DNA of 64,000 nucleotides. It comes from Patescibacteria group bacterium. GTDB taxonomy: Bacteria > Patescibacteriota > Minisyncoccia > Phycocordibacterales > PALSA-1337. The notes beneath the pieces are model-generated. The model made no database searches. It worked only from the letters and a program-made list of their open reading frames with translations, and was not told where the DNA came from. The first letter of the stretch is position 1. Each line of letters opens with the position of its first letter. The stretch is from NCBI GenBank assembly GCA_024654575.1, contig JANLHG010000005.1, forward strand, positions 1,260 to 65,259. Reading direction: 5' to 3'. Positions 3,986 through 51,876 of the stretch are shown one piece after another. Position numbers and translations under genes: made by a program.

Positions 3986-5309
3986 GAATTGCTTTTGAAA
4001 TTCTTAAGATTACTTCTTCTTTTCCTAAAATATATATCAAAGAAAAAGGGTCTGGTGATTTATCTTTTCCCGATAGGGCATAGCGAACAGGCCAAAGAAC
4101 ACCCCCCTTCCCTTCTTTTTCGGCATAAGACATTATTTGATTTTTAATATCATCAACACTCCAATTCCCTATTTTATTTATAGAATCAATTACTTTTTCT
4201 AAGTGAATGACAGTTTTTTTAGAATCATTTTCATTCTTCCAAAATAATTTATCTTTTGTATATTCTGGTTCATTAAAAAAGTAATCCAACTCCCCCGCTT
4301 CTATCATTGTGTCTATGTCAGAATAAACATTGATACGGTCGAAAATAATCATTAATAACTTTTCCAAATATTCATCTGATACAACATATTTTTTCTCTAT
4401 TCTTTTTTTAATTTCTTTAAATACTATTTTTTTGTCTAACTTTTTTAGATATTCTTTATTAATCCAATTAAGTTTTTCAATATTAAAAATCGCTCCACTT
4501 TTTTGCACTTTAGCTAGATCAAATTGTGCAATAAGTTCGTCTATACTAAATATTTCTTTTGTCGTTCCGGGGTTCCATCCGAGAAAGGCAAGATAATTAA
4601 TAATTGCTTCGGGGAGATAACCCTTTTCTCTGTAATCATCAACACTCACTGCACCGTGCCTACCTGAAAGTTTAGATTTATCAGGAGCAAGAATAAGTGG
4701 TAAATGAGCATAAATAGGCGTCGGAGCACCTATCGCTTGTTGTATAAGAATTTGTCTGGGAGTGTTAGAAATGCCATCTTCTCCACGAATAATATGAGTA
4801 ATACCCATTTCAAAATCATCAATAACAACTGCTAAATGATAAATTGGTTCCTCCAAAGATTTTGCAATAACAAAATCACCAAGCTCTGTTGTATCAAACT
4901 CTATGTCACCTCGGATTAAATCTGTAAATTTTATTTTTTTATTTGAATTTTTAAAACGAATAACCTCATTTCTTTTCCCTTCCTCTACTTCTTCCTTTGA
5001 AAAATAAGCTTTGTCTTCATCAATGAGTTTCTTCAAATATGTTTTATATATATCATTACGTTGTGATTGCCAAAATGGACCATCATCATAACTAATCCCC
5101 AACCATTCTAAACAATCAAGCATATTTTTTTCATACTCCTTCTTTGATCGTTCTTTATCTGTATCTTCAAATCTAAAAACTATTTTACCTTTATTTTGTT
5201 TTGTAAAAAGGTAGTTAAAAAGAAATGTTCTTGCCCGTCCAATATGCAAAAAACCGGTAGGACTAGGTGGAAATCTGGTAATGACTTTCATACCAGTATA
5301 ATAACACAA
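3972..5309 (-). CDS. gltX: Glutamyl-tRNA synthetase (class I aaRS)
   Basis: RFPPSPTGFLHIGRARTFLFNY contains the HIGH motif in GluRS context. KLSGRHGA is a KMSKS-like motif. Length is about 440 aa. The true start is probably the MKVITRF Met. Confidence 0.9.
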   Translation of the reverse strand: MCYYTGMKVITRFPPSPTGFLHIGRARTFLFNYLFTKQNKGKIVFRFEDTDKERSKKEYEKNMLDCLEWLGISYDDGPFWQSQRNDIYKTYLKKLIDEDKAYFSKEEVEEGKRNEVIRFKNSNKKIKFTDLIRGDIEFDTTELGDFVIAKSLEEPIYHLAVVIDDFEMGITHIIRGEDGISNTPRQILIQQAIGAPTPIYAHLPLILAPDKSKLSGRHGAVSVDDYREKGYLPEAIINYLAFLGWNPGTTKEIFSIDELIAQFDLAKVQKSGAIFNIEKLNWINKEYLKKLDKKIVFKEIKKRIEKKYVVSDEYLEKLLMIIFDRINVYSDIDTMIEAGELDYFFNEPEYTKDKLFWKNENDSKKTVIHLEKVIDSINKIGNWSVDDIKNQIMSYAEKEGKGGVLWPVRYALSGKDKSPDPFSLIYILGKEEVILRISKAIHVLS

Positions 5310-5312
5310 ATA

Positions 5313-5765
5313 CTAATCAATCGCTGTAATTTTGAGTTTGAATTTTACTGTTTTATCTTGCACTTGAACTGTAATTTCATGTTCACCCACTTCTTTTATT
5401 GGTTTATCTAATTTGATGAATTCTGGAGAAATGATAAGTCGAGTTTGTTTGGTAATCTCTGGAGCAATTTCGGCACTATGAATCCCAGCAAAAAGATGGC
5501 CTTTCTCATTGGCTTTTCCAGCCATTTCTATAACAATACCATTCATATCGTTAAGATTCTTCAAAAGCAAGTCTTCTTGAATTTTTTTCTCTATATCTTC
5601 CTTTGCTTTTTCTACTGAAACCCTTTTTACAGCCTTTTCTGTAGCGATTTCAGCAAAACCCTTAGGTATAAGAAGATTTAAAGCATATCCATCAGAGATA
5701 TCTTTAACATCATATTTTTTACCTACTTTAGGTGTGTCTTTTAGTAAAATTATTTTCATACACAA
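5313..5765 (-). CDS. rplI: 50S ribosomal protein L9
   Basis: MKIILLKDTPKVGKKYDVKDISDGYALNLLIPKGFAE matches the L9 N-domain consensus. Confidence 0.85.
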   Translation of the reverse strand: MCMKIILLKDTPKVGKKYDVKDISDGYALNLLIPKGFAEIATEKAVKRVSVEKAKEDIEKKIQEDLLLKNLNDMNGIVIEMAGKANEKGHLFAGIHSAEIAPEITKQTRLIISPEFIKLDKPIKEVGEHEITVQVQDKTVKFKLKITAID

Positions 5766-5779
5766 TAAACCTTATCATT

Positions 5780-7018
5780 TCAATAATTCTTTAGCAACTC
5801 TAAAGCCTTATTCATTTGTGGGTCAATTTTCTTATCTATATCAGTCTGAGATATTTTAACTTCATAATCCGGCTTTAAACCTCCTTCAGAAATGGAATTA
5901 CCTTTTGGAGTAAGCCACCTTGCGACTGTTACTTTAAGAGACGTATCTGAAGTTATAGGAACAAGTTCTTGAACAGAACCTTTACCAAAGGTTTTCGTAC
6001 CAACTAACTTGACAATACCATGTTCTTGTAATGCACCTGCCAAAATCTCTGATGCTGAAGCCGAACCTCCATCAACTAAAATAATAAAATGTAAATTAGA
6101 AAAAACATTATATCCCCTACTTCTGTATATTTTATCATCACCGTTTTTACCAAAATCTTCAGTCACAACAATTTTTCCACTTGGTAAAAACCAACTCGCC
6201 ATGTCCACCGATGCTTCAAGATAACCTCCTGGATTACTACGAAGATCTAAAATCAGTTTTTGGGAACCTGATTCATAAAATTGTCTCAATGCATTTCTAA
6301 ACAGGTCAGGAGAATTAGCAGAAAAACTATATAATTTAATTACAAAAACACCATCTTTTCTTAATTCGGTGTCAATAGTTGGTAAATCAATAGTATCTCT
6401 AGTTATTTTGACATCAAACGGTGCTTTTATACCTTCACGAAAGACATTAAGAGTTACTATAGTCCCCTTTTTACCTCTAATGAAACTAACCGCATTATCC
6501 GTAGACATGTCAATTGTACTGGTAGCATTTATTTTAACAATTTTATCTCCCACCTTAATTCCAGCCTTTTCGGCAGGACTACCTTTCAAAGGAGCGACTA
6601 CTGTTAATATTTGGTCTTTCAGAGCAATCTCCATTCCAACTCCTTCAAAATTCCCAGCGATATCACTTTCAAATATTTTTGATTCTTTAGGAGGAAAAAA
6701 AACTGTATAAGGGTCACCCATTGAGCTAGCTAGTCCTTGCATAGCACCCCAAATTCTCTCTTGATCATTTGGAATTGGTTTTGAAGAAACATATTTTTCA
6801 GTTAAAATTGACCATTCTTTCCAGAATGGAGAAAGGTCTACAGAATTTATATTTGCAACATTTATTCGGTTTTTAGAACCAGCATAAGCACCGGCCATAA
6901 ATACCAAACCTAAAATCACCATCGCCACCACTACTGACGAAACATATTTCAAATATTTATTATTCATAAGTAAAAATATTATATCATATGCTATAATATT
7001 TTCTATTATGGTCATCAA
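5780..7018 (-). CDS. ctpA: Carboxyl-terminal processing protease (peptidase S41, CtpA/Prc-like) with PDZ domain
   Basis: Has an N-terminal TM segment and a PDZ-like region (GIKVGDKIVKIN). The S41 catalytic region is LRSNPGGYLEASVDMASWF. Confidence 0.85.
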   Translation of the reverse strand: MMTIIENIIAYDIIFLLMNNKYLKYVSSVVVAMVILGLVFMAGAYAGSKNRINVANINSVDLSPFWKEWSILTEKYVSSKPIPNDQERIWGAMQGLASSMGDPYTVFFPPKESKIFESDIAGNFEGVGMEIALKDQILTVVAPLKGSPAEKAGIKVGDKIVKINATSTIDMSTDNAVSFIRGKKGTIVTLNVFREGIKAPFDVKITRDTIDLPTIDTELRKDGVFVIKLYSFSANSPDLFRNALRQFYESGSQKLILDLRSNPGGYLEASVDMASWFLPSGKIVVTEDFGKNGDDKIYRSRGYNVFSNLHFIILVDGGSASASEILAGALQEHGIVKLVGTKTFGKGSVQELVPITSDTSLKVTVARWLTPKGNSISEGGLKPDYEVKISQTDIDKKIDPQMNKALELLKNY

Positions 7019-8345
7019 ACTTCACAACACATTGTCTGGAGAAAAAGAAGAATTTAAACCTCTCAATGAAGGAAAGGTTGGTATTTATAATTGTGGACCA
7101 ACAGTTTACGATATTGCACACATAGGAAATCTCAGAACTATGGTTTTTTATGACATTATCAGAAGAATATTTGAATATAATGAGTATAAAGTAGAACAAG
7201 TGATGAATATTACAGATGTTGATGATAAAACAATCCGTAAAAGTATCGAAGAAAAAATAACACTCACTGAACTAACAGAAAAATATGAAAAGCTTTTTTT
7301 TGAAGATATTGAAAAACTCAATATTATTAAACCACAAAAAATACTTTCTGCCAGAGCACATATGTCAGAAATTATAGAACTTATATCAACACTAATTAAA
7401 AATGGTTCAGCATACGAAGCGAGTGACGGAATCTATTTTAAAATTTCAAATTGTAAAAACTACGGATTACTAGCTAGATTAAAATTAGATAAACCGACTC
7501 AAGAAAGAATAGAAAATGATGAGTATGATAAAGAAAACCCTCGTGATTTTGCTTTATGGAAGTTTTATAAAGAAAATGACGGAGATGCAGTGTGGACCGC
7601 GCCCTTCGGGCGCGGTCGCCCTGGTTGGCATATTGAATGCTCAGCTATGGCTATAAAATCACTAGGAGACACGCTTGATATCCACGCTGGTGGAAGTGAT
7701 TTGATTTTTCCTCATCACACAAATGAAATCGCTCAGTCAGAATCAGCAACTAGAAAAACCTTTGTAAACTATTGGCTTCATGGAGGAATGATGAATGTTC
7801 AAAGTGACAAAATGGCGAAATCAAAAGGTAATTTTCTAAAATTAAAAGAGTTAATTGAAGAAAAAATATCACCCCTCGCATATCGTTATTGGCTTCTTAC
7901 TGCACATTATCGAACACAAATTAATTTTACTTTTGAAGCAGTTTCAGCATCTCAAACCGCATTAATAAACTTTTGTAATTATTTTATGGCATTTGGAGAA
8001 AAAAGTGGTGAAATTGATATAGATTACAATAATAAATTTATTGACTTCATAAATAACGATTTGGATATGCCTAAGGCAGTAGCTCTGGCTTGGGAATTGA
8101 TTAAAGATAAAAATATTTCAAACGAAAACAAAAAAGCTACTCTATTAAAATTTGACGAAGTATTCGGATTAAAATTAAAAGACCTAAAAATTCCTGATAA
8201 TAATGAAGAGATACCAGAAGAAATCAAGTTTTTGATTGAAGAAAGAGAAAATGCCCGCAAAGCTAAAGATTTCAAAAAATCCGACGCCCTAAGGAGTGAA
8301 ATAGAAGCTAGAGGGTATAAAGTCAAAGATATACCCTTATCTTAA
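7008..8345 (+). CDS. cysS: Cysteinyl-tRNA synthetase
   Basis: YNCGPTVYDIAHIGNLRT contains the HIGH region. RPGWHIECSAM is the Zn/cysteine-binding motif. KMAKSKGN is the KMSKS motif. Confidence 0.92.
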   Translation: MVIKLHNTLSGEKEEFKPLNEGKVGIYNCGPTVYDIAHIGNLRTMVFYDIIRRIFEYNEYKVEQVMNITDVDDKTIRKSIEEKITLTELTEKYEKLFFEDIEKLNIIKPQKILSARAHMSEIIELISTLIKNGSAYEASDGIYFKISNCKNYGLLARLKLDKPTQERIENDEYDKENPRDFALWKFYKENDGDAVWTAPFGRGRPGWHIECSAMAIKSLGDTLDIHAGGSDLIFPHHTNEIAQSESATRKTFVNYWLHGGMMNVQSDKMAKSKGNFLKLKELIEEKISPLAYRYWLLTAHYRTQINFTFEAVSASQTALINFCNYFMAFGEKSGEIDIDYNNKFIDFINNDLDMPKAVALAWELIKDKNISNENKKATLLKFDEVFGLKLKDLKIPDNNEEIPEEIKFLIEERENARKAKDFKKSDALRSEIEARGYKVKDIPLS

Positions 8346-8364
8346 GCCATATTATTAATTTCGC

Positions 8365-8394
8365 TTGACATAAAACTATCTTATGGTGTATAAT
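8365..8394 (+). promoter_or_regulatory. Near-consensus sigma70 promoter (TTGACA-18-TATAAT) driving the GC-rich orphan gene
   Basis: ttgaca at 8365-8370 and tataat at 8389-8394. Downstream is a roughly 110-nt leader with two hairpins (cttag…ctaag; ttcct-tg-cacc-GAAA-ggtg-aggaa) and two SD-like sites. Confidence 0.6.
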
Positions 8395-8507
8395 AAGGGG
8401 TAGATTCTTAGTCGTATGGCTAAGTCGTTCCTTGCACCGAAAGGTGAGGAATAAGGAGGTAAGTGCGTTCCTCTACTAACGCACAAGTACATTGAAAGGA
8501 GTGTTGT

Positions 8508-9005
8508 ATGACATTCAAAAACGAAGAATTCGTAATCAACAACGGGCCGTCAAAGATCGATCTTATGTTTTCCTTATTCGATACTGACATGGGAAAGCGG
8601 ATGTTAGAATTTCACACGCCTCAGTGGGTTCACACCCACGATGCGAATGATTTCAAAGTTCAGATTACTTCCGCACGAAGACGAAATCCGGCGGCGACGA
8701 TCTGGGAGATCGAAGGAATCACTGACGCTCAAGGTGGGAAGACGCGAGTCTCCATCTATTATCTCTCGGACACCCGCGAAGGTCGCATGAGGTTCGAGGA
8801 AGAGCTTCGGACTCATGGCATCATGGAAACGCCGGACGACGCCAAAAGAGCAAGGGCCCTCATGATCATCATCCAGAAGATGGTGGCCATCGCTCAGTAT
8901 CACGGCGGCTTGCCCGAAGAGTTCTACGTCCTGTTCGAGAAGGCAAAAAAAATCAAATTTGCCGAAGATCGTGATTCACTCACTGAAGCTGTCAAAGGCA
9001 TCTAA
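8508..9005 (+). CDS. Hypothetical protein (165 aa), compositionally foreign (about 50% GC against a roughly 30% background)
   Basis: Strong RBS AAAGGAG 8 nt upstream of the ATG. It has its own promoter and terminator. Codons are GC3-rich, unlike the neighbours. No recognisable motif. Confidence 0.6.
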   Translation: MTFKNEEFVINNGPSKIDLMFSLFDTDMGKRMLEFHTPQWVHTHDANDFKVQITSARRRNPAATIWEIEGITDAQGGKTRVSIYYLSDTREGRMRFEEELRTHGIMETPDDAKRARALMIIIQKMVAIAQYHGGLPEEFYVLFEKAKKIKFAEDRDSLTEAVKGI

Positions 9006-9026
9006 TCTCTAAACTGAAACCTCAAG

Positions 9027-9066
9027 AAGCGCATCTGCAAAGATGCGCTTTAACTTTAATTTTTTA
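9027..9066 (+). terminator. Rho-independent terminator
   Basis: Perfect hairpin aagcgcatc-tgcaaa-gatgcgctt followed by a T-rich tract. Confidence 0.7.
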
Positions 9067-9101
9067 TCCCCAAATTAGACACATCTTATAACCGTTTTCA
9101 A

Positions 9102-9131
9102 TTGATGCGGAATTTTTCATTATGCTACAAT
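9102..9131 (+). promoter_or_regulatory. Putative sigma70 promoter for dnaB (TTGATG-18-TACAAT)
   Basis: The hexamers sit 8-37 nt upstream of the dnaB ATG. Confidence 0.35.
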
Positions 9132-9138
9132 TCCCTCA

Positions 9139-10524
9139 ATGAACACCAAAACCATTCAACCTAGGAGTTTAAGAATTCCTCCACAAAATATTGATGCTGA
9201 AAAAGCAGCTCTTGGTTCTATTATGTTAAGACCTGAAGCAATGCACGATGTAGTTGATATTATTCGTGGAGAATCTTTTTATGCAGAAAAACACCGACTC
9301 ATCTGGCAAACAATGCTTGATTTACAAAGCAAGAGTTCTCCTATTGATTTACTTTCTCTTTCTTCACGACTTAAAGAAAAGGGTTTATTAGACGCAATTG
9401 GCGGAATGTCGTATCTCACAGAAATTGCAGGTTTTGTCCCCTCTTCTACAAACGCAAACCATTATGCCGAAATTGTTCAAAAAAAATATATGATGCGGAG
9501 TCTAATTAATGCTTCGGAATATATTGGAGAGTTAGGTTTTGATGAAGCAGGAGAACTTGAAGAACTTTTGGAAAAAGCGGAAAAAAGAATTTTCGAAGTG
9601 ACAAATTATTCCGGTATTCATAAGTTTATTGAACTTAAAGATACTCTAGTTGAAGCATGGGATAGACTTGACACTCTTCACAAATCTAAAGATGAAATGA
9701 GAGGTGTTTCAACTGGTTTCAAAGAATTAGACCTAAAACTTGCTGGTCTGCAAAAATCCGACCTCATTATTCTAGCTGCTCGACCTTCTATGGGAAAAAC
9801 ATCTCTAGCTCTTGATATTGCTCGAAAATCAGCCACAAATCATAATGTGCCAGTAGGAATATTTTCTCTTGAAATGAGCTCCCAACAATTAGTAGATAGA
9901 ATGCTTGCCGCAGAATCACAGGTTGATTCTTGGAAACTACGAACTGGACAGAATCTTTCAATTGAGACAGATTTCAAACATATTCGTGATGCAATGGATA
10001 AATTATCAAAAGCACCGATTTATATTGATGATCAACCCGGAAATAACATTTTAAAAATGCGTTCTGTCGCACGACGTCTTAAAAGTGAAAAAGGATTAGG
10101 TCTAATTATCGTTGATTATTTACAATTAATGGTCCCAACTCAAGCACGACATTCCGACAATCTTGTTCAGCAAGTGACAGAAATATCTCGCTCTCTTAAA
10201 AATCTAGCCAGAGAATTAGATATCCCCGTTTTAGCCCTTTCTCAACTTTCTCGAGCCGTTGAACAACGTGGAGGTAGACCTCGCCTATCGGACTTGCGAG
10301 ATTCTGGTTCTATTGAACAAGATGCGGATGTGGTAATGTTTATACATCGTGAAGATAAATATAATGAAAATTCTGAAAGACCAAATATTGCCGAAATTCT
10401 TATCGAAAAACACAGAAATGGTCCTACTGGAAAAGTAGAACTATATTTTGATGAAAAGAAAACGACTTTCCTTAGTGTAGAAAAAACAGATTTCAAAGAT
10501 TTTGATAAAGAAGGAGGATTTTAA
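9139..10524 (+). CDS. dnaB: Replicative DNA helicase DnaB
   Basis: The N-terminal domain is PPQNIDAEKAALGSIML. The RecA-like core has Walker A (ARPSMGKTSLAL) and the LIIVDYLQLM motif. Length is 461 aa, so there is no intein. Confidence 0.92.
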   Translation: MNTKTIQPRSLRIPPQNIDAEKAALGSIMLRPEAMHDVVDIIRGESFYAEKHRLIWQTMLDLQSKSSPIDLLSLSSRLKEKGLLDAIGGMSYLTEIAGFVPSSTNANHYAEIVQKKYMMRSLINASEYIGELGFDEAGELEELLEKAEKRIFEVTNYSGIHKFIELKDTLVEAWDRLDTLHKSKDEMRGVSTGFKELDLKLAGLQKSDLIILAARPSMGKTSLALDIARKSATNHNVPVGIFSLEMSSQQLVDRMLAAESQVDSWKLRTGQNLSIETDFKHIRDAMDKLSKAPIYIDDQPGNNILKMRSVARRLKSEKGLGLIIVDYLQLMVPTQARHSDNLVQQVTEISRSLKNLARELDIPVLALSQLSRAVEQRGGRPRLSDLRDSGSIEQDADVVMFIHREDKYNENSERPNIAEILIEKHRNGPTGKVELYFDEKKTTFLSVEKTDFKDFDKEGGF

Positions 10525-10530
10525 AAAAAT

Positions 10531-11145
10531 ATGGATTCTATCAATAAACTTATTGAATATTTCAGTGAATTCCCAGGTATCGGTCCCAGACAAGCCAAAA
10601 GATTTGCTTTCTTTTTACTTACAAAAAATAAAAGTTATTTGGAATCACTGACCAAAAATATAACTGAACTTAAACAATCAATTCGCATTTGTGAAGAATG
10701 TTTTAGATTTTATACCAAAGATAAAAATGATTTACCTATTTGTAATATCTGCAAAAGTGTCAATCGTGATAATTCCATCATGATGATTGTAAGTAGAGAT
10801 GTTGATATGGAAACTATCGAAAAAAGTCATTCTTTCAACGGAAAATATTTTGTGCTTGGCGGAACAGTACCTATTCTTGATAAAAACCCAGAAATGAGAG
10901 TACGTTCACGGGAATTAATAAAAAGAATAGGTATTTTAGATGGTTCATTAAAAGAAATAATTTTAGCTCTAAACGCTAACTCCGAAGGCGAAAATACAAC
11001 TGATTATTTAAAATCTATTCTCTCTTCCATCACCGAAAAACATTCAATCAAAATATCTATTCTCGGCCGAGGGCTTTCCACAGGCACAGAACTAGAGTAT
11101 TCCGATTCCGATACCATCAAAAATGCTTTAAAAAATAGAGCTTAA
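10531..11145 (+). CDS. recR: Recombination protein RecR
   Basis: EFPGIGPRQAKRFAFFLL is the HhH motif. A C4 zinc finger (CEEC…CNIC) and a Toprim region are present. Length is 204 aa. Confidence 0.9.
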   Translation: MDSINKLIEYFSEFPGIGPRQAKRFAFFLLTKNKSYLESLTKNITELKQSIRICEECFRFYTKDKNDLPICNICKSVNRDNSIMMIVSRDVDMETIEKSHSFNGKYFVLGGTVPILDKNPEMRVRSRELIKRIGILDGSLKEIILALNANSEGENTTDYLKSILSSITEKHSIKISILGRGLSTGTELEYSDSDTIKNALKNRA

Positions 11146-11459
11146 CTAAACGACTCAATTTTAACTTTGAAAAAAGGTTGACGGTGGCCGTTTTTTTTGA
11201 AATAACGAGATTTTTGTTTGTATTTGATAACAGTTACTTTCGGTAATCTACCGATTTCAATAAGAGTAGCAGTTACTTTTGCATTTTCAATAAAAGGAGT
11301 ACCAATAGTAGTATCTTTACCATTATCAACAAGAAGTACCTTATCAAAAGTGATTTTATCACCTTCCTTTACATCACCGGGGATTTTCTCAATCTTGAGA
11401 GTATTTCCTACAGCGACCTTGTATTGCTTACCTCCTGTTTCTATTATCGCAAATTCCAT
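11142..11459 (-). CDS. rplU: 50S ribosomal protein L21
   Basis: MEFAIIETGGKQYKVAVGNTLKIEKI matches the L21 N-terminus (AVIKTGGKQYRV). Confidence 0.88.
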   Translation of the reverse strand: MEFAIIETGGKQYKVAVGNTLKIEKIPGDVKEGDKITFDKVLLVDNGKDTTIGTPFIENAKVTATLIEIGRLPKVTVIKYKQKSRYFKKNGHRQPFFKVKIESFS

Positions 11460-25547: not shown

Positions 25548-26003
25548 ATGGAAAATTGTGTTTTTTGTAAAATCGTAAGTGGCGAACTGCCTTGCTACAA
25601 AATATGGGAGGATGAAAAGCATTTAGCTTTTCTTTCCCGCAACCCCAACACGGAAGGTTTTTCAGTTGTCATAACCAAAGAGCACTATCCGAGCTATGCA
25701 TTCGATCTTCCTGATCAGGTTTTAACCGACCTTATTCTTGTAACAAAGAAAGTCGGAAAGTTGATTGATTCTAAACTTGATGATGTCGGAAGAACCGGCA
25801 TGATCTTTGAAGGATTCGGAGTTGACCATATCCATGCCAAACTTTTCCCAATGCATGGTACAAAAGATATGGGAGAGTGGAAGTCGATGAAATCCAATGT
25901 GGACAAGTATTTTGAAATCTACGAAGGATACATCTCTTCCCATGATTATAAACCCTCAACTAACGAAGAGCTTGCGAAAATTGCTTCTAAGTTCAAGCAG
26001 TAA
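25548..26003 (+). CDS. HIT-family (histidine triad-like) hydrolase
   Basis: The N-terminus is CVFCKIVSGELPCYKIWEDEKHLAFL. The HIT-like motif is VDHIHAKLFP. Confidence 0.55.
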   Translation: MENCVFCKIVSGELPCYKIWEDEKHLAFLSRNPNTEGFSVVITKEHYPSYAFDLPDQVLTDLILVTKKVGKLIDSKLDDVGRTGMIFEGFGVDHIHAKLFPMHGTKDMGEWKSMKSNVDKYFEIYEGYISSHDYKPSTNEELAKIASKFKQ

Positions 26004-33813: not shown

Positions 33814-34950
33814 TCAACCAACAAGTTTCCATAGAAGCTCAGTTCCTCCTTTGAAGACTTGGACTTCTCCGACTTTCTGCGGAACGACAAGCGCCCCGCG
33901 TTCGATCGTCATCATCTCCGAGCTCACTTCCATGCCATAAAGCGCGAGGAAGTTTTCGGAAAGGAACGGACCGAGATGTTCGAGTGCGTTGTCCTGGTCG
34001 AAGGTCATCGTGTAGAGCTCAACGGCCGAGGGAGCGGTGAAGATGCCAGCCGCACAGCCATAGCAGCGAGACTTTGCACTTTCATCGTGAGGAGCGGAAT
34101 CCGTTCCTGCTCCGAAGCGACGATTACCCGAAGTCACATACTGCCGGACTTTTGCACGATGCGTTTCGCGCTTCGGCACAGGCTTGCAGTAGTGGCCAGG
34201 ATTCATCCCACCCCAGAACATGGCGTTGCGATTAATCATCAGATGATGAGCAGTCACAGTCGCATGGATATCGTGATCGACTTCTGCGACGAAGTCGGCC
34301 GCTCGTCCATCGGTGAGATGTTCGAAGACCACCGGCAATCCTGGAAAGGACTTGAGGATGGGCTTGAGGTCGCGGTCCACGGAAACGCTCTCGCGATCGA
34401 ATTCGTCGACATCTTCCTCGACTGCTTCGAAGTGTCCAAGCAATGGGATTTTGTGTTTCTCCATCACCTCGAACACCGGATAGCGACCAAGAAGATTCTT
34501 CACGCCGTGCGCCGAGCCAGTGGTGCCACCCTGGCCTTTTTGATTGGCCATGTAGAGCTTCACCGCTCGCCAAACACCTTCTTCGAAACCGCGCACGACT
34601 TCTTCAGGATCGATATGATCCGTCAGATACAGCGTCATGCAAGGCACGAAGTCGTAATCCTTCTTCCAATACCATTCTTGTCCTTTCGGAGCATTAGTAT
34701 TGAAGCGTAAACTCGTCATAACTTGTTCGATCTCTTTACGGTAATCTTTCGCTTTTTCAATCGTCGTTACCGGGTCAGCAAGGTTTGGCATGATAATCGC
34801 CCCCGTTGCATGCTGTTTGAGTGTACACGGAAGAACGGTCTTGAGCATATCACCACTTCGAAGGTGAAGATGACGGTCAAACCATCGAGGTATTGTTACC
34901 GAGTTTTCTTTCATGAGTTTTCCTTTTTGATAAACGATGTGGGTTTCCAC
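33814..34950 (-). CDS. pyrC: Dihydroorotase, type II (E. coli PyrC-like); GC-rich foreign composition
   Basis: FDRHLHLRSGDMLKTVLP, AIIMPNLADPVTT, CMTLYLTDHIDPEEVVRGFEEGV, PLLGHFE, VVFEHLT, GTDSAPH and CYGCAAGIFTAPSA align motif-by-motif to E. coli PyrC. DNA is about 55% GC. Confidence 0.9.
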   Translation of the reverse strand: METHIVYQKGKLMKENSVTIPRWFDRHLHLRSGDMLKTVLPCTLKQHATGAIIMPNLADPVTTIEKAKDYRKEIEQVMTSLRFNTNAPKGQEWYWKKDYDFVPCMTLYLTDHIDPEEVVRGFEEGVWRAVKLYMANQKGQGGTTGSAHGVKNLLGRYPVFEVMEKHKIPLLGHFEAVEEDVDEFDRESVSVDRDLKPILKSFPGLPVVFEHLTDGRAADFVAEVDHDIHATVTAHHLMINRNAMFWGGMNPGHYCKPVPKRETHRAKVRQYVTSGNRRFGAGTDSAPHDESAKSRCYGCAAGIFTAPSAVELYTMTFDQDNALEHLGPFLSENFLALYGMEVSSEMMTIERGALVVPQKVGEVQVFKGGTELLWKLVG

Positions 34951-35780
34951 GGAGTCCGCAGATGAATTGCACCGAAGCCGATCGCTTTCGCGCCGAGCCT
35001 CCTAAGCTTTTCCATGTCTTCGAATTCCATGATACTTGGACCGATCACAGGAAGCGATCCTTGTTTAGCGAGAGCTTCGACTGCCGCCCAGTTGTGTTTC
35101 TGTGCCGGTTTGCCGGAGACGCCTCCGCCTCCACCACCGACTTGTTTTTCGAGCTTCGCTAAAGGGGTCTGCCCGCTGTTAGTAAAGACCGTCTTCCACG
35201 GCACGCTGTTGAGGGAAACCGCTTCCGCGATTCCGACAAGTCCGCGTGCAATAGTGAGATAGTCCTGATCAGCCGAGACTTTGACGATTACGGGGTGACG
35301 CGAAGCGCGTTTGACCGCCTTCACACTATTCACCACCATTTCTGCCTGTTCGATTGCATGGCCAGTATTCGGACACGAGACGTTGACTTCAAGCGCAACG
35401 ATATCGAAGCGATTGAGCATCTCCGCCATTTCCACCAGTTCCTTTTCATCGCCGAAAATTGATCCGGCTGTTGGGAACTTTTTGAAATCGAGTTTGGGAC
35501 CGACTTCTCGGCACCACCACTCGACACCAGGATTAGTGAGCCCAACTTTATTGACCGCTCCGCCTGGAATCAGGCGAACGCAGGTCCAAGGCTTCCACCA
35601 TCGTAGGTTTCCGATACGCGGGTTGCGCGTCAGAGATTTGATGACTACAGTGAAGAGTTCGGGCTTGATGAGACCGAGCCACACCAGTGGCCGTTCCCAA
35701 GGCCAGCCCTTGCCATCAAAGGCAAGAGCGCCGCTTGCAACCATGTATTTGAACGCATGTCCGTTTGATAATGTGATCAT
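34911..35780 (-). CDS. pyrD: Dihydroorotate dehydrogenase, class 1 (Cys active site, PyrD 1A-like); GC-rich foreign composition
   Basis: Contains NKVGLTNPGVEW, ALEVNVSCPNTGH (NxSCPN), GGGGGVSGKP and a C-terminal GFGAIHL. It overlaps pyrC by 40 nt. Confidence 0.85.
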   Translation of the reverse strand: MITLSNGHAFKYMVASGALAFDGKGWPWERPLVWLGLIKPELFTVVIKSLTRNPRIGNLRWWKPWTCVRLIPGGAVNKVGLTNPGVEWWCREVGPKLDFKKFPTAGSIFGDEKELVEMAEMLNRFDIVALEVNVSCPNTGHAIEQAEMVVNSVKAVKRASRHPVIVKVSADQDYLTIARGLVGIAEAVSLNSVPWKTVFTNSGQTPLAKLEKQVGGGGGGVSGKPAQKHNWAAVEALAKQGSLPVIGPSIMEFEDMEKLRRLGAKAIGFGAIHLRTPWKPTSFIKKENS

Positions 35781-51258: not shown

Positions 51259-51876
51259 TTATGCAATGATGTATTTCATCACCTCATCTCTCGTTTCTGA
51301 AGTGATTTTTTTCTTACCGACAAAGAACTCCAATGTTTCGCTGAGCTTGGCGACAGCGATAACCATTCGATCTTTATTTAACTCAATAAGCCCACCTTGT
51401 TCCCGATCGTACAAAACGAGGGTGGCGACTACTTCCAATCCATTCGCTTCGACTGATTTGATGGCTTCGCGTTTGGTATCGGCTTTGGTGATGAGGTCGT
51501 CAATCAACACAACTTTTTTACCTTTTTCAAAAGGATCTAAAATTGTGGAAGTGATATGACGACCTTCCTCATTCTCAACCTTTTGGATACGCAAATGAGG
51601 TTTACTTACAGCTTTGGCAAACGCTTTACCAATCGGCTCGCCGGCGTTGGGGATACCAATGACATAATCGAAGTCAGTAATTCTTTCCTGAACAACAAGG
51701 TCATGCAGAATATCTCCAGCTAAAGCGTAGAGCCATTCTGGCAATTCTCTGATGTTGAGATAAATCGGCGACAGTGGTGCCGTCGGATTTTTCTCGTGCA
51801 ATTTCAATCTGAAAGCACCGAACTTGATCTTTGCCAAATTGAGAAGACTCATATGGAGATACTCTTTTGCTTGCAT
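51259..51876 (-). CDS. pyrE: Orotate phosphoribosyltransferase
   Basis: The N-terminus is FGAFRLKLHEKNPTAPLSPIYLNIRE. The PRPP-binding motif is KKVVLIDDLITKADT. Length is 205 aa. GC is intermediate, about 45%. Confidence 0.75.
   Translation of the reverse strand: MQAKEYLHMSLLNLAKIKFGAFRLKLHEKNPTAPLSPIYLNIRELPEWLYALAGDILHDLVVQERITDFDYVIGIPNAGEPIGKAFAKAVSKPHLRIQKVENEEGRHITSTILDPFEKGKKVVLIDDLITKADTKREAIKSVEANGLEVVATLVLYDREQGGLIELNKDRMVIAVAKLSETLEFFVGKKKITSETRDEVMKYIIA

Follow-up and report, generated by a model that had tools for sequence, protein, structure and literature searches.

Structured 5′ leaders of several kinds have been described. Autogenous translational operators enclose the start region of the gene that they control; examples are the MS2/Qβ coat-protein hairpin, the leader pseudoknot of T4 gene 32, the rpsO (S15) pseudoknot of E. 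coli and thrS with its two look-alike hairpins. The preQ1, SAM-II and fluoride riboswitches are compact pseudoknots of the H-type, and the leaders of ompA and aprE carry 5′-terminal hairpins that stabilize highly expressed mRNAs. Here we describe a leader RNA of ∼110 nt, and the gene for a 165-residue protein that follows it, from a member of the Patescibacteria (the candidate phyla radiation), a large and mostly uncultivated part of bacterial diversity. The stretch analysed, called the window throughout, comprises 64,000 nt (assembly GCA_024654575.1, contig JANLHG010000005.1, positions 1,260–65,259). Leader and gene form a cassette with their own promoter and terminator between cysS and dnaB.

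The cassette gene is foreign to this genome; it was acquired horizontally and inserted at the cysS–dnaB junction. Its product belongs to a sizeable, uncharacterised family that is found in Patescibacteria wherever the source is named, and its leader is a conserved pseudoknotted RNA motif with five covarying helices. In insertion, family and RNA structure, taken jointly, we have high confidence. The horizontal-transfer reading is correct and is ordinary in kind; the leader adds a new and well-supported RNA motif to the known structured control elements of the 5′ untranslated region (UTR). A search of window positions 8000–9400 against Rfam 15 (E up to 10) gave nothing in the leader, the best hits elsewhere scoring 15–20 bits against thresholds of 44–100, and 11 other motif-bearing loci (E up to 1) yielded only tRNAs and chance microRNA hits. 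The literature searched holds neither a description of the motif nor a Patescibacteria-specific regulatory RNA.

The leader resembles the autogenous operators in that a structured 5′ region lies directly before or over the Shine–Dalgarno (SD) sequence and AUG, in having a pseudoknot and two similar hairpins (one with the start codon), and in its strict link to a single gene. It differs from them in having no sequence or Rfam relationship, in the lack of a known RNA-binding fold in its protein and in that the whole unit is a mobile Patescibacteria cassette. With the three riboswitches it shares a small pseudoknotted 5′-UTR domain just 5′ of the SD, covarying stems and conserved junction nucleotides, but it has no Rfam match, precedes a non-metabolic gene, lacks the pseudoknot in some members and contains no expression-platform switch that we could find. 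As in the ompA and aprE leaders, a hairpin (P1) lies within ∼5 nt of the predicted 5′ end behind a consensus promoter; unlike theirs, it has a conserved loop sequence that copies the start-codon hairpin, and it is succeeded by three more conserved helices.

Structure and covariation of the leader RNA

The elements of the leader in the window are as follows (other loci are denoted by L numbers).

8403–8516, + strand: leader RNA, conserved and structured, with its 5′ end (GAUUC...) near the predicted start of transcription; defined by covariance model, covariation (34 leaders) and minimum free energy fold
8403–8406, + strand: 5′ tail GAUU (GAUUC including the first P1 base); AAUUC in the family
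8407–8424, + strand: P1, a 7-bp hairpin CUUAGUC/GGCUAAG with loop GUAU (G-N-A-U in the family); 99.2% of alignment cells paired, 7 of 7 pairs change on both sides
8425–8427, + strand: junction UCG (invariant GUCG in the family)
8428–8451, + strand: P2, a hairpin of variable length, UUCC..CACC GAAA GGUG..GGAA, GNRA-capped here; basal four pairs 96.3% paired, 4 of 4 change on both sides
8455–8459, + strand: 5′ strand of the pseudoknot, GGAGG, paired with 8470–8474
8463–8484, + strand: P3, a 7-bp hairpin GUGCGUU (8463–8469)/AACGCAC (8478–8484); 100% of cells paired, 8 of 8 columns change on both sides
8470–8474, + strand: 3′ strand of the pseudoknot, CCUCU, at the start of the P3 loop, paired with 8455–8459
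8496–8501, + strand: SD sequence AAGGAG, abutting P4; recognized by sequence, AAGGAG(G) in all leaders
8501–8514, + strand: P4, the start-codon hairpin GUGUU GUAU GACAU; 97.1% paired, register set by ATG

The strands follow one another as in a classical H-type pseudoknot, loop 1 having 2–3 nt, loop 2 being absent and loop 3 being A-rich and 3–5 nt long. The P4 loop contains the A and U of AUG; its 3′ strand is made up of the remaining G, all of codon 2 and the opening base of codon 3, which accounts for the conserved MA-R and MT-R N-termini of the proteins. Folding of the window sequence alone with RNAfold reproduces P1–P4 at −34.2 kcal/mol (z = −3.1), a value equalled by one shuffle in 200. 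The initial annotation had seen two hairpins in the leader. Both are present, the GNRA-tetraloop stem being P2 (loop GAAA), but the complete structure has four helices plus a pseudoknot. It had also pointed to an SD-like site that a ttcctc anti-SD could sequester; these two sequences exist and do pair (8455–8459 with 8470–8474), but as a pseudoknot stem that elsewhere reads GUGG/CCAC or GAUG/CAUC, among others, and that is not SD-like in most members. Sequestration of the SD proper by the P3 loop was rejected, being possible in the window (CUCU with GGAG) and impossible in type-B and other leaders (CCAC, CAUC etc.).

The regions upstream of homologues from unrelated contexts can be aligned up to the ATG, beginning near the predicted start of transcription, and they fall into two sequence types with one architecture. 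Neither raw MAFFT output nor model-based alignment brought P3 of the two types into register. Both were replaced by an alignment curated by hand, which comprises 34 distinct leaders and was N-padded to pass through MAFFT unchanged. In this hand-fitted alignment 96.9% of cells form standard pairs, compared with 73.4 ± 0.8% in shuffles and 39–44% with slid partners; 28 of the 29 pairs changed on both sides (17.3 in shuffles), the covariation score is 0.725 (0.256 in shuffles), and none of 500 shuffles reaches any of these measures. For the pseudoknot helix alone, the values are 89.4% of cells paired versus 70% in shuffles and a covariation of 0.507 versus 0.120. At least 11 different complementary strand combinations occur in it across the homologues: GUGG/CCAC, GCGG/CCGC, GGAGG/CCUCC, AGUG/CACU, GAGU/GCUC, GGGU/GCCC, CGAGG/CCUCG, GAGCG/CGCUU, AGGGU/ACCCU, GAGGG/CCCUU and GAUG/CAUC. 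The register of P4 is set by the ATG and hence involved no hand fitting; 19–48% of its cells pair with a slid partner, against the 97.1% given above, and its stem variants include GUGCC/GGCAC, GUGUC/GACAC, AAGUC/GACUU, GAGUC/GACUC and GUACC/GGUGC.

P1 and P4 share a Y-GNAU-G loop and closing pair, and L031 and L037 have GGAU in both loops. The leader is also more conserved than the gene that follows: its identity is 0.83–0.89 versus 0.64–0.72 for the coding sequence and 0.46–0.54 at third codon positions, and between the window and L039 the leader is 96% and the coding sequence 79% identical.

Three further pairings or reading frames were considered and rejected. A hairpin mutually exclusive with P4 (GCAC...GUGC with the SD in its loop), suggested by a MAFFT alignment, shows no covariation and is broken in L006, L033, L029, L031 and L068. 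An upstream open reading frame (ORF) starting at the AUG of the P1 loop has no SD, and its AUG is missing in L015, L045 and L053. Kissing of the two GUAU loops is unsupported by the GAAU and GGAU variants.

It had been proposed that the leader could act as an RNA thermometer or attenuator, in which melting of the SD/AUG hairpin or premature termination sets expression. In the window P4 does extend to 7 bp (8499–8516), takes in all but one base of the SD core GGAG (8498–8501) and contains G–U pairs typical of thermometers. However, this extension is not conserved: the 7-bp form is peculiar to the window and L060, and hardly any homologue has the sixth pair. No terminator-like site was found in 8395–8507, the only one on the + strand being at 9026–9051, and no U-tract terminator-like hairpin lies inside the leader. 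ROSE, fourU and other Rfam thermometers gave no match, and groundwater is the source of several member contigs. A thermometer would need neither sequence-specific loops nor a pseudoknot; the conserved fold, with two G-N-A-U tetraloops and a pseudoknot, goes well beyond the complexity of a hairpin that melts. We regard control of this kind as highly improbable.

In the window and at other loci, 4–5 nt separate P1 from the predicted start of transcription, a distance that would suit a constitutive expression module whose leader is no sensor. P1 would then stabilize the transcript against 5′-end-dependent RNases, the pseudoknotted core would prevent misfolding of the SD and P4 would present the AUG in its loop, giving robust, host-independent expression to a gene that moves from genome to genome. 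A promoter and SD at or near consensus, the occurrence of the cassette in hosts of 33–58% GC and the lack of a conserved alternative pairing on inspection agree with such a module. Stability alone, however, leaves unexplained the G-N-A-U loop of P1, the invariant GUCG junction, the many compensatory versions of the pseudoknot (at least 11) and the conservation of the leader above that of the protein, and it gives no account of why P1 mimics the start-codon hairpin. We consider this explanation unlikely.

A riboswitch-like sensor would use P1, P2, the pseudoknot and P3 as an aptamer for a small molecule or ion and would control access to the SD and AUG through P4. The leader has the covariation-supported conserved structure in a 5′ UTR that defines such elements; it is compact and pseudoknotted, has conserved unpaired nucleotides (AAUUC, GUCG, UAA linkers and the A-rich loop 3) beside freely covarying stems, and lies directly before the SD with no Rfam match. 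Yet the motif is tied to one uncharacterised, non-enzymatic-looking domain and not to a metabolic, transport or signalling theme. Natural variants that have lost the pseudoknot (L028, L067) or P2 (L001), whose loop is usually GNRA in the family, retain P1 and P4, and an aptamer would not tolerate such loss. In addition, no conserved mutually exclusive expression-platform pairing was seen. A sensor of this type is, on these grounds, distinctly improbable.

Two individual leaders deserve mention. In L018 the P3–SD linker is longer by a tandem duplication of 16 nt at 5948–5979 (ACATAGGATTCACAGC/ACATTGGATTCACAAC). In L026 (∼5830–5960) a Levybacteria N-domain gene that has no model match (see below) is preceded by a start-codon hairpin, GGGAC-GUAU-GUCUC, and an upstream hairpin with a GAAU loop; the sequence points to a leader variant in Microgenomates that has diverged further.

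The protein family and its linkage to the leader

The gene and the two domains of its product are located as follows.

8508–9005, + strand: gene of the 165-residue protein; 64 homologues, ratio of non-synonymous to synonymous substitution rates (dN/dS) 0.10–0.22
8508–8807, + strand: N-terminal α/β domain, residues 1 to ∼100; also occurs alone
8820–9002, + strand: C-terminal three-helix domain, residues ∼105–165; also occurs alone

The initial annotation called the gene an orphan, which it is not. A word-index search found at least 64 homologues of 46–80% identity, nearly all of 160–176 aa and annotated as unnamed or 'hypothetical', and an exhaustive profile search gave 496 representative clusters and two separable domains. 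The N-domain (∼100 aa) is often a stand-alone protein of 90–105 aa, or occurs in tandem; the C-terminal domain (∼60 aa) is found alone or behind other N-terminal modules. The dN/dS values, obtained against 12 homologues with two pairs saturated at synonymous sites, identify a real coding gene under purifying selection. Apart from two labels of metagenome-assembled genomes (MAGs), all word-index homologues with a named source are from Patescibacteria (Nomura-, Falkow- and Harrisonbacteria, Minisyncoccia), and genome and metagenome scans add Wolfe-, Buchanan-, Moranii-, Yanofsky-, Taylor-, Levy- and Peribacteria. The two labels belong to typical cassettes (L014, L019) on contigs recorded as 'uncultured Gammaproteobacteria bacterium' and are probably binning or naming errors.

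The protein is cytoplasmic and consists of two domains. Pfam, NCBIfam, PHROG and PADLOC gave zero families for the ORF at E up to 1, and none for the distant single-domain homologues, the longer fusion proteins or the neighbouring genes. Only scattered single hits were obtained when 50 N-domain sequences were compared with profile libraries, and a sequence-profile search of the PDB found no match. The AlphaFold2 model has a predicted local distance difference test score of 80 over its full length and of 87 over the N-domain. Fold searches returned only generic helical bundles and a weak match to core-binding factor beta (CBF-beta); a nuclease or toxin fold was not found.

A covariance model was built from 10 'type B' leaders of other genomes, the window being excluded. 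It matched the window at 8403–8510 with 53.4 bits (E about 1e-9), with no second match in the 64 kb. Each matched locus has one significant hit, on the strand of the gene and ending at the ATG of the homologue. Matches at E ≤ 0.01 were obtained in 39 of 61 sources, with three further weak ones, and they include N-domain-only homologues of 27–33% protein identity (L029, L031–L033 and L035–L037, from Yanofsky-, Taylor- and Peribacteria MAGs). Genes with the C-domain only had no model match upstream. The leader is thus associated with the N-domain only, and in 448 kb of Patescibacteria loci, including the window, the model found the motif only before this gene family.

Searches for a phage origin found nothing: IMG/VR gave no protein relative, and 76 viral contigs that matched a degenerate P1 pattern were all rejected by the covariance model (best E 0.15). 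A viral contig, L107, carries two copies of an unrelated element of ∼90 nt (…TCTTTTC.GAATCG.AAAGTCGTGTCGCAAGTCC…) at 312–372 and 2084–2174 on the − strand (E 0.15–0.29), and neither is followed by a homologous gene.

An operator for a host factor, in which a conserved Patescibacteria RNA-binding protein, RNase or ribosomal component reads the GNAU hairpins and the host controls the cassette, would be in keeping with the fold and charge of the cassette protein, which do not suggest RNA binding, and with the restriction of all named occurrences to Patescibacteria, as would fit a lineage-specific factor. A host regulator would, however, be expected to have other targets, and none appeared in the 448 kb; the cassette moreover crosses class-level boundaries (Paceibacteria-type, Peribacteria, Levybacteria). 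Control by the host is improbable in our view.

The strict co-occurrence of RNA and N-domain, which are transferred together, could also mark a ribonucleoprotein or a pair like the type III toxin–antitoxin systems, the leader being the functional RNA partner. An RNA more conserved than its protein, a pseudoknotted RNA as in ToxI and mosaic, hypervariable protein segments are all features that such a pair might show. But the motif is single-copy at each locus, without tandem or direct RNA repeats except for the 16-nt duplication in L018, and no terminator separates RNA from gene; PADLOC gave no match and the fold searches no nuclease or toxin. The RNA runs into the SD and AUG and is therefore part of the mRNA. 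A pairing of this sort appears very unlikely.

The mosaic segments are discrete variants of two loops (residues ∼36–52 and 73–80) and of the C-terminal helices (∼125–150) that appear in mixed combinations among the homologues; the alignment suggests that recombination or diversifying selection may have produced them. Two gene copies are damaged behind an intact leader: that of Wolfebacteria RIFOXYD12 (L022, 5992–6499) is frameshifted into 100 aa + 101 aa, and that of L021 (5989–6399) is truncated. The genomic contexts of the homologues are nearly all different, and only one neighbour recurs, a small co-directional downstream gene at 7 of 38 loci (L001 2065–2289, L002 2090–2581, L013, L015, L040, L046 and L056). 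It encodes the motif GKWYI..W.NDFEPRGG, has no Pfam match and is fused to the C-terminal helical domain in protein P0087; the window has its terminator at that position. Many copies (L001, L002, L007, L008, L009, L046, L056 and others) lie 80–1600 nt from a contig end, a hint that strain variability or multiple copies cause assemblies to break close to the cassette.

Insertion of the cassette between cysS and dnaB

Three features define the cassette as a unit.

8361–9042, + strand: cassette, a window-specific inserted segment; borders uncertain by ∼5 nt, from blastn against relatives and reconstruction of the empty site
8365–8394, + strand: sigma-70-type promoter with −35 TTGACA (8365–8370), an 18-nt spacer and −10 TATAAT (8389–8394); 12 of 12 consensus matches
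9026–9051, + strand: intrinsic-terminator-like hairpin, GAAGCGCAUCU GCAA AGAUGCGCUUU and then a T-rich tail; 11-bp stem with 5 G–C pairs and a 4-nt loop

The cassette product and the neighbouring DnaB are 100% identical to NCBI proteins of a MAG recorded as 'Patescibacteria group bacterium'. The closest relatives are three contigs whose DnaB is 97% identical to that of the window: L075 (GCA_964359745.1), and L076 and L077 (Hainich groundwater samples). The gene order gltX, rplI (L9), ctpA, cysS, X, dnaB, recR is kept in all three, at a nucleotide identity of 80–85%. In these relatives X is a 175-aa NYN-domain (PF01936) gene of native composition (GC 0.267) and not the cassette gene. Homology between window and relatives, as seen by blastn, ends at 8331 and restarts at 9055. 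When window positions 8315–8360 are joined to 9043–9120, the relatives' sequence 3′ of the NYN gene results, which reconstructs the empty site. The presence of the same gene at the same locus in close relatives would have spoken for an old core gene; since they lack it there, the foreign origin stands. The synonymous divergence (dS) to the nearest sampled copy is ∼0.7–0.9, and the donor is therefore not among the sampled sequences.

Composition agrees with this. The window is part of a low-GC Patescibacteria contig (GC 0.335), in which the 165-aa ORF has a GC of 0.49 and a third-position GC (GC3) of 0.596, compared with 0.32/0.22 for cysS, 0.36/0.20 for dnaB and 0.32/0.23 for recR. In 200-nt windows GC peaks at 0.525–0.545 at 8600–8900 versus ∼0.27–0.37 in most flanking windows. 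The window contains 50 ORFs of 150 aa or more; of these, the cassette gene has the highest GC3 and the lowest codon adaptation index (CAI; 0.426, host median 0.713). The homologues, from their unrelated contexts, hold 48–56% GC in hosts of 33–58% GC. The contrast between a GC3-rich gene of about 50% GC and its low-GC neighbours, from which the initial annotation had argued for foreign origin, is thus borne out, as is the self-contained layout of promoter, structured leader, SD and terminator; every feature that it listed lies where it was placed. On the high expression that it thought probable the signs are mixed: promoter and SD are strong, but no other gene in the window has codons so poorly adapted.

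The inserted segment (∼680 bp) begins just before the −35 hexamer and stops inside the terminator hairpin. The promoter, initially described as near-consensus, is in fact perfect and is the sole perfect one among 12 promoter-like sites in 7000–10600; their total is not above that of shuffles, and it is the quality of this site that is distinctive. TTGACA, a spacer of ∼17 nt and a TAnnnT hexamer recur 5′ of the homologues, with differing spacer sequences. The terminator hairpin had been recognized correctly, with the qualification that its T-tract is interrupted. The homologous cassettes each have a terminator hairpin of their own, unrelated to one another.

Like integron and other small mobile gene cassettes, the element is one small gene of foreign composition among housekeeping genes, in a context that differs in nearly every genome. 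Unlike integron gene cassettes, it has its own consensus promoter and terminator, no adjacent integrase or transposase and no conserved terminal repeats. The combination that marks an integron cassette, a promoterless ORF with attC and an integrase, was not found here, attC having had no specific search. There is no integrase or transposase adjacent to the cassette in the window, and no integrase among the neighbours of the homologues. Target-site duplications and terminal repeats are absent from 11 of the 12 loci checked, and transposition with such a signature was dropped as an explanation. The exception is L006, where a direct repeat of ∼45 nt (4804–4847, 5507–5551) flanks the cassette copy exactly; this repeat corresponds to the terminator hairpin that ends the peptidase gene upstream.

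The NYN gene (L075 3237–3915, likewise in L076 and L077, corresponding to window 8331/9055) sits inside the 3′ end of cysS and is followed by a second copy of the cysS tail (AAATATACCCTTATCTTAAGC). It looks like another insertion, and two different insertions at one place suggest that the cysS–dnaB junction is an insertion hot spot. An IS200/IS605-type Y1 transposase (PF01797) lies between recR and rplU in L075 (6067–6702) and is absent from the window (11139–11149). Elsewhere in the window four more ORFs combine low CAI with high GC3 (host median 0.21): 33814–34914 (−; 0.56), 34911–35780 (−; 0.57), 51259–51876 (−; 0.45) and 25548–26003 (+; 0.42). These four, which may likewise have been acquired, comprise a DHO_dh-like protein, a phosphoribosyltransferase, a HIT-domain protein and one ORF of unknown function.

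A candidate translational operator

The monocistronic cassette of ∼680 bp (promoter, structured leader, gene and terminator), acquired horizontally, has a leader in which 5′ AAUUC, P1 with its G-N-A-U loop, GUCG, P2, the H-type pseudoknot formed with the P3 loop, the SD and P4 with the AUG follow one another. We suggest that this leader is a translational operator. A trans-acting factor would recognize the two look-alike Y-GNAU-G hairpins, positioned by the pseudoknotted core, and by binding or stabilizing P4 beside the SD it would block initiation. The most economical candidate for the factor is the cassette's own product, acting through its N-terminal domain, because this domain is the sole partner that always travels with the leader between hosts and because a regulatory RNA that moves among distantly related hosts has nothing to depend on except universal cues or the cargo it carries. 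We infer both the regulation of translation by the leader and the identity of the factor. The locus shares two marks of autogenous leaders: the leader is specifically linked to one gene, and P4, the putative operator hairpin, overlaps the start codon and abuts the SD. The reduced variants that retain P1 and P4, and the GGAU common to both loops in L031 and L037, point to these two hairpins as the core.

Several observations weigh against this mechanism. No RNA-binding fold or domain was found in the family and fold searches, and the N-domain is neutral to acidic, with a median pI of 5.8 in the close family. The two loops match in part: position 2 of the P1 loop varies (U, A, C, G) and P4 is mostly GUAU. 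P4 has only 5 bp, two of them G–U in the window, and alone would inhibit initiation weakly. By eye, the pseudoknot and P4 alignments show no conserved alternative (ON/OFF) or mutually exclusive pairing, and the hand fitting of the P1, P2, P3 and pseudoknot alignment favours the structure. Judged from sequence features, an autogenous translational operator bound by the cassette product is accordingly a tentative reading, possible but short of probable.

The locus supplies a new RNA motif and an unannotated domain family of ∼500 representative clusters. It is also a clean natural example of a complete expression cassette at a housekeeping junction, the site without the cassette being seen in sister genomes. 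An RNA of ∼110 nt and a protein of 165 aa are small enough for direct tests of autoregulation, of a riboswitch and of an expression booster, and if the leader gives host-independent expression it may be of use as a genetic part. It is rather doubtful, though conceivable, that leader and N-domain form a portable self-regulating RNA–protein module, with a new CBF-beta-like RNA-binding fold that reads Y-GNAU-G hairpins, or else that the leader represents a riboswitch class that is new and restricted to Patescibacteria. If the former is true, the module would have the start codon in one of its recognized hairpins, would be scaffolded by an H-type pseudoknot and would have spread horizontally through the Patescibacteria.

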